A stretch of 23,702 nucleotides of DNA from a virus (lineage: Duplodnaviria; Heunggongvirae; Uroviricota; Caudoviricetes). Positions 3,228-23,619 of this stretch are shown here, one piece after another. The notes beneath the pieces were generated by a model, which made no database searches, was not told the origin of the DNA, and was given only the letters and a program-made list of their open reading frames with translations. The stretch lies in the IMG/VR virus record IMGVR_UViG_2645727555_000014. One strand, written 5' to 3'. The first letter of the stretch is position 1, and each line of letters starts with the position of its first letter. Made by a program: the position numbers and the translations under genes.

Positions 3228-3271
3228 CCATTTGTGTTAGAAAATACATATTAATTATCTAACACAAATGG
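3228..3271. promoter_or_regulatory. perfect 13-bp inverted repeat (ccatttgtgttag / ctaacacaaatgg) carrying the TTTTCTAACACAAA box, immediately upstream of rdgC
   Basis: 3228-3240 is the exact reverse complement of 3259-3271, with an 18-nt AT-rich spacer. Lies between the stop of the spike-like gene and the rdgC start codon; no T-run follows on the minus strand. Confidence 0.4.
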
Positions 3272-14483: not shown

Positions 14484-14588
14484 ATGTGTCGCCTTTGACA
14501 TTACCGGGAGACCAATCCCGGCACCCGTTTTTCTAAGGTGCCGTAGAAATATACCCCACGATAATGCCAGGGCGCAACAGTCAGTATT

Positions 14589-14887: not shown

Positions 14888-14980
14888 GGTCTGGCGGCGG
14901 CGCAATAAAGGCTGGAACACCGTGAGTCAACGGGGGCTTTTCAGCCACCTATATTGCACCGCCATAGGTCTGGCGGCGGC
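14888..14980. repeat. two copies of a 14-bp direct repeat GGTCTGGCGGCGGC (each followed by CAATAA-like sequence) in a ~250-bp non-coding region
   Basis: Exact copies at 14888-14901 and 14967-14980, spacing 79 bp. No ORF of significant length on either strand in 14843-15087. Confidence 0.6.
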
Positions 14981-15087
14981 AATAATACGAAAAACTAAAC
15001 AGTTTGTCTCAAAAAGTTGACCGGTGTGCCAATCAGTAGTGAATGTACATCGGAGAAATTTACAATTCAACTTAAAATGTTAGAAAA

Positions 15088-15666
15088 CTAATTTATCAAT
15101 TCAATCGCCATCTGATACAACGCCATTTCATCGGCATTGTGCCGTATGAAATCAGCTTTTCCGCCTATTTTTCCATCAGCATGAACAGGGACCAGCCAGG
15201 GATATTGTTCTCGGACCTCGGCTGGCGCTGCGTACTGGTGGTGCCATTTACACAAAGGGAGGACATATTTATGCGCGTTCTCTGCCGTTCTCCCGAAGAT
15301 ATGGTGCAGGGATACTACTGGGCTATGTTGCCCGTGAATATGGCAGGCAATGCAGGGGAGAGTACCGATAGCGGTCTGTATCCGGCGTTCATCGGCTGTG
15401 AGTGATCTGCCCTTCAGGCCGCGTGACGTGTGTGTTTTTTTGGGCGGAGCGGATACAGCTTTATCTTTTCTCCGCTGTTCATATTGCTTTGCTTTTTCAA
15501 TTTTCTTTTGCCGATATTCAGGCGATGCGGCTTTTTCTCTCGCTCGCTGCTGCTGGCGTTGAGCTTGTTGAAGGCGCTTTGCCCTTTGTTCCTCTCGCCA
15601 GGCCGGGTCAGCCAATTTTTGCATGGCTTTTTGTCTCTGTTTCTCCCAATAACTCTGTTTCTGCAT
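15088..15666 (-). CDS. Ref-like (recombination enhancement function) HNH-type nuclease
   Basis: 192 aa. Highly basic N-terminal ~80 aa (KQRQKAMQKLADPAWREEQRAKRLQQAQRQQQRAREK...), then SRGLKGRS, CIACHIHG and LCKWHH His/Cys motifs, resembling phage P1 Ref as I recall it. Confidence 0.6.
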   Translation of the reverse strand: MQKQSYWEKQRQKAMQKLADPAWREEQRAKRLQQAQRQQQRAREKAASPEYRQKKIEKAKQYEQRRKDKAVSAPPKKTHTSRGLKGRSLTADERRIQTAIGTLPCIACHIHGQHSPVVSLHHIFGRTAENAHKYVLPLCKWHHQYAAPAEVREQYPWLVPVHADGKIGGKADFIRHNADEMALYQMAIELIN

Positions 15667-15730
15667 GATGGCAGTCTCTTACTTTTCAACGATTTTTCTA
15701 TGATTGATCAAAATGGTTAGGTATTCAAAA

Positions 15731-15759
15731 TTGATTTTCTAACACAAAACATTAATATC
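15731..15759 (+). promoter_or_regulatory. promoter-like region for the rightward operon, containing the TTTTCTAACACAAA box
   Basis: TTGATT (15731-15736), box TTTTCTAACACAAAAC (15735-15750), TAATAT (15753-15758). Precedes the first ORF of the plus-strand operon by about 30 nt. Confidence 0.4.
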
Positions 15760-15786
15760 ATTCCTGATAACTGTTTGGAGGACATG

Positions 15787-15939
15787 ATGCTTATAGCTTT
15801 AAGTGCGATCCACCAGCCATCTGTGAATGAAATTGGCCTGTTCTATGTGTTGTTTTTCGGGGCGTTGGCGCTACTTGAGCTTGGTATTGAGCTTTTCGCA
15901 GTGCTTATGTTTTGCGTCACGATTTTGGGGAAATTTTGA
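15787..15939 (+). CDS. possible small hydrophobic membrane peptide (50 aa), translationally coupled to the DUF4406-like gene
   Basis: Below the ORF-track size cutoff; found by eye. GGAGGA 4 nt upstream of ATG 15787. Product MLIALSAIHQPSVNEIGLFYVLFFGALALLELGIELFAVLMFCVTILGKF. Stop TGA overlaps ATG 15939 (TGATG). Confidence 0.35.
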   Translation: MLIALSAIHQPSVNEIGLFYVLFFGALALLELGIELFAVLMFCVTILGKF

Positions 15940-16550
15940 TGGTGAAACGTGTTTTGAAAATTTACATCGCGGGGCCGATGACTGGTTATCCAGATTACAA
16001 CCGTGCTGCGTTTAATGCGAAAGCGAGCGAGCTGATGGCTGAAGGGCATATCGTTCTGAATCCAGCTGTGTTACCTGGTGGCCTTTGTCAGAGTGAATAC
16101 ATGGATATTTGCCTGGCAATGGTGCGTTCTGCTGATGCGATCTACTTGCTCAATCGATGGGAGGAATCGATTGGTGCTCGTGCAGAGCACGCGCTGGCTG
16201 AAAAGCTGGGGCTGACTGTAATTTATGAGTCACCAACCAACATTGAATGCCAGGTTGCTCCGCATATTTACCGGGAACTGGTCAATGCACTGCGTGATAT
16301 CGCTGCTGTATATCACGGTACAGAACAGCTTCGTGAGCGTTTAGCCCATACCATTTCCTATTACCTGTCTTTATCTCATGAGCACAAGCTCCGCCAGAAG
16401 GTAATGATCAAATTTATCATGAGGTTATCGAAATCCCTGGCAAACGCCGATCCAAAGAATCCATTACCGAAAGAGGCAATGAATTACCTGAAGTCCTGCA
16501 ACGTTGTTTCTGAAGATGGCGTTCTTTTGGTTAGAAGGAGTTCTGCGTGA
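15939..16550 (+). CDS. DUF4406-like (nucleoside 2-deoxyribosyltransferase-like fold) protein with additional C-terminal region
   Basis: N-terminal ~100 aa (KIYIAGPMTGYPDYNRAAFNAKASEL...NPAVLP...ADAIYLLNRWEESIGARAEHALAEKLGLTV) fits DUF4406 as I recall it; about 100 further residues follow. Start set at ATG 15939 rather than 15912 because of the overlap with the small ORF stop. Confidence 0.65.
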   Translation: MVKRVLKIYIAGPMTGYPDYNRAAFNAKASELMAEGHIVLNPAVLPGGLCQSEYMDICLAMVRSADAIYLLNRWEESIGARAEHALAEKLGLTVIYESPTNIECQVAPHIYRELVNALRDIAAVYHGTEQLRERLAHTISYYLSLSHEHKLRQKVMIKFIMRLSKSLANADPKNPLPKEAMNYLKSCNVVSEDGVLLVRRSSA

Positions 16551-16864
16551 GCTGGCGGGGATGGGGAAGGGCAGAAATCATGATACTCCGCCAGTGCGCC
16601 GGGACTATGACAGTCGAGAGTATTGGGAGGCTGATCGGGCGTACCGGTAGTGCTGTCAGAACCAAAGCGCGGCAACTGCGGATCTGCATGATTCTGAAAG
16701 GAGACTTTCACCCGTCAGCCAAATACCGGCAGGGCGATATAGAACTGGCACGGCAGCTTCATCGGTGTGGTGTTCCCCGCCGTGAGATCGCGGAAAAACT
16801 CGAAATGCCCCTAGGCATGATTAATCAGTACGTTTATTTCGAAAGGAGAGTGTATGAAGTCTGA
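16547..16864 (+). CDS. hypothetical protein with HTH-like segments
   Basis: GTG start overlapping the upstream stop (GTGA). Segments TVESIGRLIGRTGSAVRTKARQL and GVPRREIAEKLEMP look helix-turn-helix-like. Confidence 0.5.
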   Translation: MSWRGWGRAEIMILRQCAGTMTVESIGRLIGRTGSAVRTKARQLRICMILKGDFHPSAKYRQGDIELARQLHRCGVPRREIAEKLEMPLGMINQYVYFERRVYEV

Positions 16865-17342
16865 AGGTTTAACGCCCGCACAACTGGCAGAGCGTAACGC
16901 TGAGTATGTAACGGAAATTTCCCGACTTGAGAAAGCGTGTGCTGCGCTGGCGGCGGAGAATGCTGGGCTGAAACATGCAATGGCTGTAACTCTTGAGCAT
17001 GTGTCGGTCACGGATGCAGGTCAGGCCGGAGTTGCTGCAATGATTATCAACGATGCCCTGCACCACAGCGAAACTCCAGCCACCGATGCTTTTCTGGCTG
17101 AAATTCGTGCGGCGGCTCGCAACGAGGGGATTAACTATACCGCAAGCCGTCTTGCTGCTGCTTTCAACCACGGATTTATCAATAAGTCTTTACGTGAAGT
17201 TTTCGACGTTACACGCATGATTTTGTCAGCGAAAGAAGAGTTGGCTAATGAAGCGCATCCGATTGATGGCCTGTCTGGTGAATATGCGGAGAAATCCCTT
17301 GAAGAATGGGCGGAACAGATTCGCAAAGGAAGCAGCCAGTGA
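16854..17342 (+). CDS. hypothetical phage protein (162 aa)
   Basis: Strong AAAGGAGAG SD before ATG 16854. No family recognised. Confidence 0.55.
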   Translation: MKSEGLTPAQLAERNAEYVTEISRLEKACAALAAENAGLKHAMAVTLEHVSVTDAGQAGVAAMIINDALHHSETPATDAFLAEIRAAARNEGINYTASRLAAAFNHGFINKSLREVFDVTRMILSAKEELANEAHPIDGLSGEYAEKSLEEWAEQIRKGSSQ

Positions 17343-17614
17343 ATATCGACACGACAATAACGATCGATACGCTCCTAAATACCGGTCTGGCACTTCTCGG
17401 TTGGCTTTACATCATGTCCCGTACCTGGCGATGGCTGGGTTCCATTTTCCTAAAAGAGTGGAAAAAACGGCGCAAACAGGAACTACGCCAGAAGGCATTA
17501 GAAGCGTTCTATGACGCATTTGAGCTTAGCCGCATTGAACCAGGCACAACAGCCAGAATAGCGACAAAAGGCGACCTGATGATAGTGATGTTCAGACAGG
17601 AGAAAACCAAATGA
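17339..17614 (+). CDS. small hypothetical protein with one predicted TM helix
   Basis: Start inferred at GTG 17339 overlapping the upstream stop (GTGA); the ORF-track start at 17306 would overlap the previous gene. Hydrophobic segment LLNTGLALLGWLYIM. Confidence 0.45.
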   Translation: MNIDTTITIDTLLNTGLALLGWLYIMSRTWRWLGSIFLKEWKKRRKQELRQKALEAFYDAFELSRIEPGTTARIATKGDLMIVMFRQEKTK

Positions 17615-17835
17615 CAGAACAGACGATGACAAATCGCGAACTTGTTGATGCCGCGATTGAACTTGCTGGCGATTTTTATTCCATGATGGGTTACGAGCAT
17701 CGACCTGGTTTTAAGTATTGGGAGTTACCGCATCCGCAAGAACAACAGGTGTTTGAAATGGCCTGCCGTGCTTTTGAGGTTATTCGCGGTTCTGATGTGA
17801 TGGAGGCCGTTGCCGACTTGGAGGATGAAGAGTGA
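17611..17835 (+). CDS. hypothetical phage protein (74 aa)
   Basis: AGGAG upstream of ATG 17611; stop overlaps the next start. Confidence 0.5.
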   Translation: MTEQTMTNRELVDAAIELAGDFYSMMGYEHRPGFKYWELPHPQEQQVFEMACRAFEVIRGSDVMEAVADLEDEE

Positions 17836-18143
17836 GCATCATTAAAGAAATGCCGGTAGAACGTGATGAATATGGCTGCTGGACACATCCGGAGTATGAG
17901 AAGTTTTGCGCAGGTCGTGAATATATTTCCACTGAGGAATTTGACGCCTGGATGAAGGAAAATAATCTTCAGTGGACTATTCGCAGTATGGATGAAGATG
18001 ATTTTGATCTGGACGCAGCTGGACCCGATATTGCCGCCTGGGAACCGGAGCGACCAGAGGGTGAAGGCTGGTTTGTTGGCTCTATCCATGACACTGAAGA
18101 TGGTCCAGTTTGTATCTGGCTGCGGGAGAAGGTTGCCGCATGA
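17832..18143 (+). CDS. hypothetical phage protein (103 aa)
   Basis: GTG start with GGAGGA 7 nt upstream; stop overlaps the phosphatase start (ATGA). Confidence 0.55.
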
Positions 18144-22822: not shown

Positions 22823-23197
22823 ATGATGACACTAAAACATTTTCTTGACCGCCCATTATGGGCGGCAGCCGCAGGCTATGACTTTAATTATATGGATTGC
22901 ATGTCTTATACTGCCAATGCATACGACCATTCGTTCAGCCTGCTGTTTAATTCTTTAAGAATATTGCCGGAAACAGAAGTTGGAGAGCTTCATTTATGGA
23001 TATTGGGCTTTATCGCGGCTGGAGTTGGTATTGCCGTATGGCCTTTTATTTTCTGGCTGGTGGCTGTTGTAGTGTGGTTTAAGTGCAAGACGTACCGGAA
23101 AAAGTATTTCTTAGGTGATGGAATGACTGATATTGCCAAAATGAACATTGAAAAATGGACTAAGGAATGTGAAAAGAAATGGCGCAAAAAGAAATGA
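22823..23197 (+). CDS. hypothetical membrane protein with Lys-rich C-terminus
   Basis: Hydrophobic segment LWILGFIAAGVGIAVWPFIFWLVAVVVWF followed by KKWRKKK. No clear SD, start uncertain. Confidence 0.45.
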   Translation: MMTLKHFLDRPLWAAAAGYDFNYMDCMSYTANAYDHSFSLLFNSLRILPETEVGELHLWILGFIAAGVGIAVWPFIFWLVAVVVWFKCKTYRKKYFLGDGMTDIAKMNIEKWTKECEKKWRKKK

Positions 23198-23619
23198 CTA
23201 CTCTAACGACAGCATACTTACAGCAATTGGTATTTTTTGCAGGCGAGGCTACTTGTCATCCTGACGCAAACTATTTATTGGAATTTGAGAGGTTAGCGTC
23301 ACCCGGTATCGTTCTGGAACTGGCCCAACAGGTGCTGGCCTTGAGACAAAAAGAGCAACATGAAAGTAATACGTGTAGATTGAATTTTGAGCAGTGGCTG
23401 GAACAGCAACGCGGAAAAATCGATGTGGACTGTGGTTGTGTGTCCACTGAAACATTCATGCACTGGCTGCGGGTAGCTTACGAGGCTGGCAACTATCCGG
23501 ATATTCCTGATAGTTCGGTGCCAGGGCCAGGAAAGGGCATCACCGGTGAACGTATCCGCATTAAACCGCATGTTTATCGCGAACTGGTTAACCGTCTCCA
23601 CGATACAGCGATCGAGTAG
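23179..23619 (+). CDS. hypothetical phage protein (146 aa)
   Basis: ORF overlapping the previous gene by 19 nt; start uncertain (alternative ATG 23194). C-terminus KPHVYRELVNRLHDTAIE repeats a motif seen in the DUF4406-like protein. Confidence 0.5.
   Translation: MAQKEMTTLTTAYLQQLVFFAGEATCHPDANYLLEFERLASPGIVLELAQQVLALRQKEQHESNTCRLNFEQWLEQQRGKIDVDCGCVSTETFMHWLRVAYEAGNYPDIPDSSVPGPGKGITGERIRIKPHVYRELVNRLHDTAIE

Follow-up and report, generated by a model that had tools for sequence, protein, structure and literature searches.

The window, by which we mean the whole stretch of 23,702 nucleotides that was analysed, shows 98.6% DNA identity to phage D6, and as much to an E. coli plasmid, and on sequence grounds it is a D6-like plasmid prophage of E. 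coli that belongs to the P1 family. Two of its genes are considered here. The first encodes a hydrophobic peptide of 50 amino acids (MLIALSAIHQPSVNEIGLFYVLFFGALALLELGIELFAVLMFCVTILGKF; positions 15787-15939, plus strand, ATG to TGA), which was delineated by conservation and hydropathy and corresponds to D6 orf88 and to family phrog_8890. The second encodes a DUF4406 protein of 203 aa (15939-16550, plus strand, assigned with Pfam and PHROG), which is D6 orf89. Together they are the opening genes of a tightly packed rightward operon, and both are already catalogued, as members of families that are known but uncharacterised. The divergent neighbour (15088-15666, minus strand) encodes the RecA-dependent nuclease Ref, as recognized by Pfam PF16786 (E = 1.3e-34) and by existing annotations, and by it the locus is recognisable as the early region next to ref in a D6-like genome. 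Downstream, the DUF4406 stop codon is overlapped by the GTG start of a gene for a 105-aa HTH DNA-binding protein (16547-16864, plus strand; phrog_323 'transcriptional regulator', E = 4e-26; 'DNA-binding protein' in RefSeq). An HTH homologue adjoins DUF4406 on the downstream side in 13 of 14 D6-like loci and on the upstream side in 5 of 66 other loci. The operon contains no genes for base biosynthesis or base modification, and an Rfam scan of the region from 14.5 to 17.5 kb gave no match overlapping either of the two genes.

The position at the head of an early operon, which was part of the original prediction for this DNA, agrees with the rightward orientation of the operon and with the presence of an adjoining operator-like site. 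This site, the 18-mer AAATTGATTTTCTAACAC at 15728-15745 (plus strand), was recognized by counting the motif and by its location in a block that is conserved among three diverged lineages, with flanks that diverge. Allowing up to three mismatches, the motif occurs at 4 sites in the window, as compared to 0.03 expected, and one of these is found a short distance upstream of the immunity region's c4-like antisense RNA. The 18-mer is probably a binding site for a phage repressor of the C1 type. The operator consensus of P1 C1 itself, ATTGCTCTAATAAATTT, gave 0 matches with three mismatches or fewer, and the motif that was found instead is a different, D6-type one. The operator-like site overlaps the -35 region of a putative sigma-70 promoter for the operon (15731-15758, plus strand, read from the sequence), with TTGATT at 15731-15736, a spacer of 16 nt, and TAATAT at 15753-15758 as the -10 region. 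Its -35 is inside the conserved block, and it has 8 of the 12 consensus positions, under the scanner threshold of 9 of 12; the consensus promoter scan reported none between ref and the small ORF. In view of the overlap between the site and the putative promoter, the operon is probably repressor-controlled and expressed early.

The start of the peptide is fixed by the single ATG of L035, a D6-like relative, which aligns with the ATG at 15787. A Shine-Dalgarno sequence GGAGG (15777-15781, plus strand, read from the sequence) is located 5 nt 5' of this codon, which bears out the good ribosome-binding site that had been proposed, and it is present as GGAGG or GGGAG in diverged lineages. The peptide matches the phrog_8890 profile over its full length (positions 1-50 of 50, E = 2.3e-35), a family to which no function has been assigned. 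As anticipated, the small ORF is conserved, being open and of full length in 33 of 33 related viral loci, and the other two frames of the region carry stops. Against the two most diverged lineages, dN/dS values according to Nei-Gojobori were 0.10 (dS 1.7) and 0.21 (dS 1.2), with dS saturated. Because of the open frame in all loci, the low dN/dS, the closure of the other frames and the existence of a PHROG family, the 50-aa ORF has to be regarded as a real gene; dN/dS and frame openness also rule out constraint at the DNA level, rather than coding, as the cause of its conservation. The gene is annotated as orf88 in phage D6, and in the closest RefSeq plasmid it was left uncalled by NCBI's PGAP. 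It is carried by 112 plasmids and is unannotated in most of the plasmid records among those listed. Apparent decay of the copies P0124, L162 (one-base insertion in a G run) and L163 (indel-rich assembly) looks like the result of sequencing errors, and the seemingly truncated copy P0123 reflects an alternative GTG start call.

The predicted hydrophobicity of the peptide is evident from a GRAVY of 1.64 and from Kyte-Doolittle means over 19 residues of 2.0-2.3 for residues 16-48, with a maximum of 2.31 and a customary threshold of 1.6. One transmembrane segment is predicted, at about residues 16-47, and it encloses the invariant core L27-A28-L29-x-E31-L32-G33-I34-E35-L36-F37-A38 (LALxELGIELFA). 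The Hessa position-independent sum amounts to 0.0 to +2 kcal/mol, which is borderline for membrane insertion due to the two glutamates, E31 and E35. Models from Pfam, NCBIfam and PADLOC were not matched, and neither an antisense RNA nor any other feature of a type I toxin was detected at the gene. Judging from these properties, the gene most likely encodes a separate protein of the inner membrane that has a single helix. This helix would enter the inner membrane with its two conserved glutamates on one face, an arrangement that points to self-association, or to docking onto a partner in the membrane. Presumably the nearest analogues are small single-pass inner-membrane proteins of enterobacteria and their phages, such as AcrZ, KdpF and type I toxins of the Hok kind, which the peptide resembles in its length of 50 aa, its one long hydrophobic segment and its strong ribosome-binding site. 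It differs from these proteins, however, by the two conserved glutamates within the predicted membrane segment and by the absence of similarity to any of the models named above.

The stop codon of the peptide gene overlaps the next ATG, as originally described, in the sequence TGATG (15937-15941, plus strand), in which one base is common to both genes. This overlap is kept in all related loci, including L035, and the final peptide codons (GGG/GAG AAA) provide an SD-like GGGGAAA or GGAGAAA for the ATG of the DUF4406 gene. Since each of the seven gene junctions that follow one another between 15939 and 18143 has a stop/start overlap, the overlap between these two genes is generic rather than special; it represents the normal packing of the operon and probably leads to co-translation. 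RNA structure that would enforce coupling was not detected, the predicted fold of 15895-15995 being no better than that of shuffled sequences (z 0.22). A fusion of peptide and enzyme by programmed -1 frameshifting was also considered, as a T TTG GGG heptamer precedes the stop and the frame relation is right, but the heptamer is not conserved (C CTG GGG in the L014 lineage, G CTG GAG in L035) and the idea was rejected.

The assignment of the N-terminal half of the 203-aa protein to DUF4406 is firm. Residues 7-96 align with positions 2-91 of the 91 in Pfam model PF14359 (E = 1.1e-33; 116 bits against a cut-off of 22), and the protein is a full-length match to phrog_5781 (E = 5e-102). The catalytic domain (residues 1-100; 15939-16238, plus strand) contains a Y9-x-x-G12-P13-M-T15-G16 loop, N21, D66, and the motif W74-x-x-S77-x-G79-x-x-x-E83. 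Modelling gives a nucleoside-deoxyribosyltransferase/TIR-like fold, that is, the flavodoxin-like alpha/beta architecture of the NDT superfamily. Inspection of the putative active site, as had been proposed, revealed that the triad Tyr9/Asp66/Glu83 is kept, matching by position the Tyr/Asp(Asn)/Glu triad of the superfamily. In 20 sequences, down to 39% identity, the residues Y9, G12, P13, T15, G16, N21, W74, S77, G79 and E83 are invariant, and residue 66 is D in 16, E in 2, G in 1 and H in 1; it is N in the L014 lineage. The domain thus has the whole model and the invariant residues in common with the DUF4406 family as it is known from PF14359, phrog_5781, phrog_355 ('nucleoside 2-deoxyribosyltransferase') and D6 orf89.

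Similarity to enzymes of established function is more distant. Profile alignment placed YIAGP and S-x-G-A-x-x-E on deoxyribosyltransferase motifs, with E83 on the Glu of D-x-G-T-x-x-E in the T. brucei deoxyribosyltransferase (E = 0.036). With the nucleoside 2-deoxyribosyltransferases of PF05014 (L. leichmannii, T. brucei, Leishmania) as reference, the DUF4406 protein differs by having Ser at the Asp of this motif and by missing the C-terminal tail, which in the classical enzymes completes the neighbouring active site. PF05014 was not among the Pfam matches of the 203-aa protein at E ≤ 1, and a distant DUF4406 homologue (P0088) has an overlapping precomputed PF05014 hit. For Rcl/DNPH1 (2'-deoxynucleoside 5'-phosphate N-hydrolase), MilB (CMP/hydroxymethyl-CMP hydrolase) and DmtZ, sequence similarity at best reaches the limit of detection (E values from 0.036 to 0.2), and the DUF4406 domain is about 40-60 residues shorter than these proteins. 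A non-significant hhalign alignment with an Rcl sequence (E = 0.2) placed G-P-M-T-G on G-S-I-R-G-G, S77 on Ser87 and E83 on Glu93. In Rcl, the 5'-phosphate pocket is presumably formed by the glycine-rich loop after strand 1 and the Ser that is six residues before the catalytic Glu. The fold relatives that were recovered include deoxyribosyltransferases, MilB, TIR domains and ThsB, the TIR-like protein of Thoeris. Sequence searches of the PDB with the full protein and with its C-terminal part gave nothing significant, NCBIfam gave no useful match for the protein, and in PADLOC the sole hit, to CARF_HEPN, was weak (E = 0.0036, 14.6 bits). In the searchable literature, we found no biochemical data or published assay for any DUF4406 protein. 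The domain is very common in phages, with at least 582 viral stretches confirmed in one scan and with varied fusions, among which are relatives fused to MazG-like dNTP pyrophosphatase domains (phrog_12019) and 'dATP/dGTP diphosphohydrolase' hits.

The protein was also predicted to carry about 100 extra residues, and these are indeed present, since the domain extends to residue 96 and the protein is 203 aa long. Most DUF4406 members are about 95-120 residues in length or have other extensions, and the form of 203-207 aa that combines the domain with two helical modules turned up, in our searches, exclusively in Escherichia, Salmonella and Shigella, in plasmid prophages of the D6-like type. Module A, defined by homologue searches and modelling, comprises residues 107-142 (16257-16364, plus strand) with the motif PHIYRELVNALRD..GTEQLRERLAHTIS; module B, defined in the same way, comprises residues 151-197 (16389-16529, plus strand), LRQKVMIKFIMRLSKSLANADPKNPLPKEAMNYLKSCNVVSEDGVLL. 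An exhaustive search with the C-terminal part retrieved 226 cluster representatives at E ≤ 1e-3, mostly over module A, and a word-indexed search gave only the protein's own family. The proteins retrieved with module A are mosaic early proteins, with DUF551 in 3 of the 10 that were scanned against Pfam and with the motif sometimes in tandem. Module A is modelled as a helix-loop-helix (pLDDT 92-98), and a recombination junction occurs in L021 right after its ...LRD. Module B, of which the model is helical as well (pLDDT 64-83), also occurs in three proteins that lack DUF4406 (P0127, P0131, P0132) and shows weak matches to phrog_660 and phrog_33463. Residues 98-203 have no Pfam or NCBIfam match, including Ead/Ea22 (PF13935) and DUF551 (PF04448), and comparison of the C-terminal model with the PDB by Foldseek gave no match at E ≤ 0.001. 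Proteins of the Ead_Ea22 and DUF551 kinds are also encoded in the window itself, as is a truncated copy of the motif, and L035 has the peptide and the DUF4406 domain without the extension. The PH[IV]YRELVNxLRD...QLRER motif and the second helical module are thus common to the extension and to Ead/Ea22-like and DUF551 early proteins of lambdoid phages, with the difference that here they sit on an enzyme domain and in the lambdoid mosaic proteins on DUF551. The idea of a dedicated additional C-terminal domain must therefore be abandoned, as both modules are common to hundreds of unrelated lambdoid early proteins and are absent in L035. From these comparisons, the tail of about 100 residues is a set of exchangeable mosaic modules that recombine independently of the enzyme domain and are outside the catalytic unit; it probably serves for oligomerisation or docking.

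The explanation that we favour, to which we would give slightly less than an even chance, is that of an early repressor-controlled operon in which the DUF4406 protein is a (deoxy)nucleoside monophosphate N-glycosidase and the peptide an independent inner-membrane protein. By analogy with Rcl/DNPH1, MilB and DmtZ, the substrate of the DUF4406 protein would most likely be a (deoxy)nucleoside 5'-monophosphate, whose N-glycosidic bond it would cleave. The nucleophile would be Glu83, positioned by Tyr9 and with Asp66 assisting, and the phosphate would be held by the G-P-M-T-G loop and Ser77. Phage DmtZ, which is a dAMP N-glycosidase as well as a deoxyribose-5-phosphate transferase, depends for its activity on a Tyr/Asn/Glu triad that was described as characteristic of the superfamily (PMC12884076). 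Other members of the fold use nucleosides (deoxyribosyltransferases) or CMP (MilB). The deoxyribosyltransferase/TIR fold also includes members that act on NAD+. Given the use of nucleosides and CMP elsewhere in the fold, the choice of substrate is a guess. Base cleavage would trim or reshape a nucleotide pool in early development, and the nucleotide-modifying or nucleotide-depleting role that was proposed at first would be consistent with the conserved triad. Peptide and enzyme are most likely functionally independent, and would stay together through inheritance of the block within the lineage.

A rather unlikely alternative is a single functional unit of the two proteins, in which the peptide would anchor, activate or gate the N-glycosidase at the inner membrane, or in which a membrane effector would be combined with a nucleotide sensor; such a unit might serve in superinfection exclusion, or as a counter-defence against immunity that relies on nucleotide signals. 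Such a partnership would fit the presence of the D6-like DUF4406 lineage in all 33 viral loci that have the peptide, the adjacency of the pair with TGATG in three lineages of saturated synonymous divergence, its retention in L035, where all intervening accessory genes were lost, and a fold that is common to TIR domains and ThsB. However, a homologous upstream peptide is missing from all of the other phage DUF4406 loci that were examined, about 35 distinct ones, and the peptide is thus no general partner of the domain. Overlaps are universal in the operon, so that the supposition that the coupling is unusual or specific does not hold. Moreover, synteny is equally conserved for Ref, ppp and pdcB, and linkage alone thus explains the co-occurrence. 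The peptide gene and the N-domain also differ sharply in divergence, with dS values of 1.7 versus 0.39 for L014 and 0.27 versus 0.03 for L021, which points to recombination between them, and neither protein has a convincing match to a defence model in PADLOC.

Equally improbable, in our opinion, is a role without turnover, in which the DUF4406 protein would be an oligomeric 'sponge' or scaffold that binds or sequesters a nucleotide or a nucleotide-derived signal and is assembled by the helical tail. The small size of the domain (about 95 residues, without the classical C-terminal tail), its extremely wide distribution in phages with varied fusions, and the incomplete conservation of Asp66 are compatible with such a role. 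On the other hand, Glu83, Tyr9, Ser77 and the G-P-x-T-G loop do not vary even in sequences of 39% identity, as would be expected of an enzyme, and with the exception of adaptor-type TIR domains, the characterised fold members that were recovered are glycosidases or transferases (PMC12884076).

The protein could also be an enzyme that acts on DNA or on a nucleoside, for example by base exchange or excision in DNA modification, perhaps guided by the HTH protein, and this we consider quite improbable. Deoxyribosyltransferases proper do use nucleosides, and in 18 of 80 loci an HTH homologue is the neighbour of DUF4406, on one side or the other; yet Pfam detects no DNA-binding domain in the 203-aa protein, the operon is devoid of genes for base biosynthesis or modification, and PF05014 thresholds are not reached. 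Modified bases are not known from the D6-like and lambdoid phages that carry DUF4406. Finally, a dedicated two-component early function of D6-like phage-plasmids, in which a membrane helix with an acidic stripe recruits or activates an N-glycosidase at the inner membrane that destroys a nucleotide-derived immune signal or a specific nucleotide at the site of DNA entry, is very improbable; if true, it would be a new kind of module for counter-defence or exclusion, derived from the deoxyribosyltransferase/TIR fold.

These findings will not surprise specialists and open no long-standing question. The 50-aa gene is a clean case of a conserved small protein that is skipped by standard annotation pipelines, and the intragenic mosaicism at the PHIYRELVN motif illustrates the way in which enzyme domains of temperate phages gain helical tails that can be exchanged. 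Among the unexplained domains of phage early regions DUF4406 is one of the commoner ones, and a first assignment of a substrate would provide an annotation for many genomes. The recent finding, made with DmtZ, that phages reshape nucleotide pools by means of this fold would be extended as well (PMC12884076).

The 50-residue reading frame at 15787-15939 (+) has a GGAGG 5 nt before its ATG, and its TGA overlaps the ATG of the 203-codon DUF4406 gene at 15939-16550 (+) by one base, both as originally described. An alternative ATG one codon upstream of 15787 lies too near to the GGAGG; in the most diverged relative only one ATG is present, and it aligns with that at 15787. The peptide-DUF4406 pair was recovered from 33 related viral loci, in all of which the small frame is conserved as an open frame of 50 codons and the TGATG junction is identical. 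Three well-diverged lineages were compared, namely the window type, the type of locus L014 (70% peptide identity) and locus L035 (58% peptide identity). The dN/dS ratio of the peptide gene (Nei-Gojobori) is 0.10 between the window and L014 (dS 1.7) and 0.21 between the window and L035 (dS 1.2); the other two frames of the same DNA contain stops, and their ratios are 0.4-3.4. Among the invariant positions are L27-A28-L29, E31-L32-G33-I34-E35-L36-F37-A38, F42, V44, T45 and K49, and the peptide belongs to phrog_8890 (E 2e-35). By these evolutionary criteria, the small ORF is a genuine gene.

The almost fully hydrophobic character ascribed to the peptide is reflected in a GRAVY of 1.64. The Kyte-Doolittle mean is 1.7-2.3 in every 19-residue window from residue 16 to 32, where the customary threshold is 1.6, and the position-independent Hessa sum is borderline, at 0 to +2 kcal/mol, because of two conserved glutamates that lie 40 degrees apart on a helical wheel. 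The most economical prediction is that the peptide forms one membrane helix, with an acidic stripe. It had no match in Pfam, NCBIfam or PADLOC. A protein-level search located it on 112 plasmids from Escherichia, Salmonella and Shigella, with at least 80% of its length covered in 107. The few broken copies, which show an extra base in a run of G or come from one assembly full of indels, look like sequencing errors. Among phage records only D6 carries the peptide, and among 185,579 species-representative genomes it was found on a single short contig, JAFAFN010000164.1 (3.2 kb), assigned to an 'Actinomycetes bacterium' MAG. The peptide gene on this contig is 100% identical to the E. coli plasmid version, and the contig is probably an enterobacterial contaminant of the bin.

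The 2.4 kb around the gene pair are 98.6% identical to Escherichia phage D6, a P1-family plasmid prophage, and match a 93-kb E. coli plasmid over their full length with the same identity; of 5426 complete E. coli genomes, 85 contain at least 80% of the region. In the D6 annotation, orf88 is a hypothetical gene of 153 nt and orf89 is DUF4406 domain-containing and 'similar to N-term half gp57 of phage N15', while the annotation of the closest RefSeq plasmid includes the DUF4406 gene but omits the peptide gene. Both genes are already known from the D6 annotation, Pfam and PHROGs.

The predicted DUF4406 similarity was borne out, residues 7-96 matching the Pfam family end to end (E 1.1e-33). Foldseek searches of viral models gave numerous proteins labelled 'deoxyribosyltransferase' or DUF4406, among them fusions to dATP/dGTP diphosphohydrolase-type domains, and in PHROGs the domain is also tied to a family of MazG-like pyrophosphatases. 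A profile built from 16 DUF4406 domains reached the deoxyribosyltransferases of T. brucei (E 0.036) and Leishmania (E 0.21), aligning K-I-Y-I-A-G-P with R-K-I-Y-I-A-G-P and S77-x-G-A-x-x-E83 with D-x-G-T-x-x-E. Since the protein gave no match to the Pfam family model for nucleoside deoxyribosyltransferases proper, it was filed under DUF4406 and the superfamily rather than under that family. In an alignment reaching metagenomic members of 39-48% identity, Y9, G12, P13, G16, N21, P42, W74, S77, G79 and E83 are invariant, residue 15 is T or S, and D66 is mostly Asp, being Asn in the L014 lineage. One member of this superfamily, the phage enzyme DmtZ, was characterised as hydrolysing dAMP and as using 2-aminoadenine as the acceptor in deoxyribose 5-phosphate transfer; for activity it needs a Tyr/Asn/Glu triad that was called characteristic of the superfamily (2026, PMC12884076). 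The corresponding positions hold Y9, D66 and E83, the last of which aligns with the Glu of D-x-G-T-x-x-E. An hhalign comparison with rat Rcl placed G-P-M-T-G on G-S-I-R-G-G and S77 on Ser87, with an E of 0.2 that is not significant. The Rcl loop and Ser87 contact phosphate, and Rcl-like phosphate contacts in the DUF4406 protein may be taken as a lead only. No functional study of DUF4406 was found in the literature searched. The enzyme half is typical of its family, which is uncharacterised, very common in phages and part of the deoxyribosyltransferase superfamily, and its catalytic constellation is intact.

The roughly 100 added residues are indeed present, whereas their description as an extra C-terminal domain was not supported. 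An exhaustive search with residues 98-203 gave 226 cluster representatives at E<=1e-3, nearly all matching residues about 103-150 only. The common element, PH[IV]YRELVNxLRDxAxxYxGxxQLRERxxxT[IL]S, occurs at varied positions in proteins of 50 to 700 residues, at times twice in tandem, and DUF551 was also present in 3 of 10 matches scanned against Pfam. A second element (residues 151-197) is common to three proteins lacking a DUF4406 domain (P0127, P0131 and P0132). Ead_Ea22 and DUF551 proteins are encoded in the same window, and a second, truncated PHVYRELVN motif copy, KPHVYRELVNRLHDTAIE, lies at 23557-23610 (+), cut short by the stop codon at the end of an ORF (23179-23619); it could be a recombination-junction remnant or a truncated mosaic protein. 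The extension matched no Pfam or NCBIfam model and gave no significant hit to a solved structure; modelled alone, it forms four helices (mean pLDDT 80.5), the motif being a confident helix-loop-helix. Between the window and L014, dS is 0.39 for the N-domain and 0-0.03 for the extension; between the window and related locus L021, it is 0.03 and 0.4-0.8, respectively, with the switch directly after ...YRELVNALRD. Because one junction lies exactly there, the motif may serve as a recombination linker. Constraint is weaker on the extension (dN/dS 0.28-0.56) than on the N-domain (0.13-0.27), and the DUF4406 protein of L035 has 97 residues and no extension, with peptide and overlap kept. The extension thus assorts independently of the enzyme domain and is a helical mosaic module, exchangeable and drawn from the pool of lambdoid early genes, most likely with a role in oligomerisation or docking. 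The DUF4406 gene is mosaic within itself, near-identical and diverged versions of N-domain and tail being mixed among L014, L021, L023 and L030 relative to 15939-16550. In two natural deletion variants on E. coli contigs (P0058 and P0064), the DUF4406 gene keeps part of the tail and then continues in frame into the C-terminus of the helix-turn-helix (HTH) protein encoded downstream or into other downstream sequence.

To the left of the peptide gene, on the opposite strand, lies ref, encoding a RecA-dependent nuclease (Pfam E 1.3e-34), followed by an immunity region with icd, antirepressor and a c4-like antisense RNA. The latter, at 14890-14969 (-), matches the full Rfam model RF01695 with 37.7 bits (E 6.7e-05), below the gathering score of 45, and, as in the immI region of P1, precedes the icd-like and antirepressor genes. 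Directly downstream on the same strand, at 14500-14554 (-), are partial sub-threshold matches to isrK (28.6 bits) and the c4 target a1b1 (17.6 bits). The stretch separating ref from the peptide gene contains one block that is conserved in the three lineages, with diverging flanks (consensus CTATGATTGATCAnAnnnGTTAGAnAnTCAAAATTGAwTTTCTAACACA). Its right half is the 18-mer AAATTGATTTTCTAACAC, of which four copies with up to 3 mismatches occur in the window, where 0.03 would be expected: a head-to-head overlapping pair at 3234-3251 (-) and 3248-3265 (+), one just upstream of the c4-like RNA at 15077-15094 (-), and one, at 15728-15745 (+), between ref and the small ORF. C1 operators are arranged in this way in P1, although the P1 operator consensus is absent from the window, and the 18-mer is probably the operator of a D6-type C1 repressor. 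The last copy overlaps the -35 of a promoter (TTGATT, 16-nt spacer, TAATAT) that is plausible but falls below the scan threshold. It is therefore reasonable to infer that the peptide gene stands at the head of an early, repressor-controlled operon.

The translational coupling is not unusual, since all seven consecutive junctions from 15939 to 18143 overlap (by 1, 4, 11, 4, 4, 4 and 4 bases), and the local RNA fold at the junction is no better than shuffled controls. It is unlikely that the peptide and the DUF4406 protein form a functional partnership. All 33 loci that carry the peptide also have this DUF4406 lineage, and the pair persists in L035, whose operon is reduced to peptide, DUF4406, phosphoesterase and pdcB; however, the synteny of ref, ppp and pdcB is equally conserved, and dS of the peptide gene and N-domain differs strongly (1.7 versus 0.39 in L014; 0.27 versus 0.03 in L021), which points to recombination between them. 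Vertical linkage is therefore sufficient to explain the pairing. Nor does the peptide accompany DUF4406 elsewhere: about 35 distinct DUF4406 loci of other phages have no homologue upstream, that position being taken by a DnaB-like helicase, a helix-turn-helix protein or another soluble protein. A -1 frameshift fusing peptide to enzyme was rejected, the only slippery-like heptamer not being conserved.

A metagenomic viral contig (L040; DUF4406 39% identity) has an unrelated 43-aa ORF upstream, with an ATGA overlap and a hydrophobic stretch (MKKRTIIFLASLFLGIGGVTYIGYTLY...), a single case that is probably coincidence. The diverged D6-like L035 (IMGVR_UViG_2908543018_000007, 81 kb), with ref, peptide, 97-aa DUF4406, metallophosphoesterase and pdcB and without HTH, DUF4752 and other accessory genes, is a minimal natural comparator. 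A homologue of the HTH gene at 16547-16864 (+) in the window directly follows DUF4406 in 13 of 14 D6-like loci and directly precedes it in 5 of 66 unrelated phage loci (L062, L103 and three others); HTH-DUF4406 is a recurrent adjacency in either order.

As a best mechanistic guess, the DUF4406 protein would be expressed early and act as an N-glycosidase on a (deoxy)nucleoside monophosphate, and the peptide would be an independent small inner-membrane protein encoded beside it. The locus offers a tractable entry point for finding a substrate for DUF4406 and a role for an overlooked small protein.
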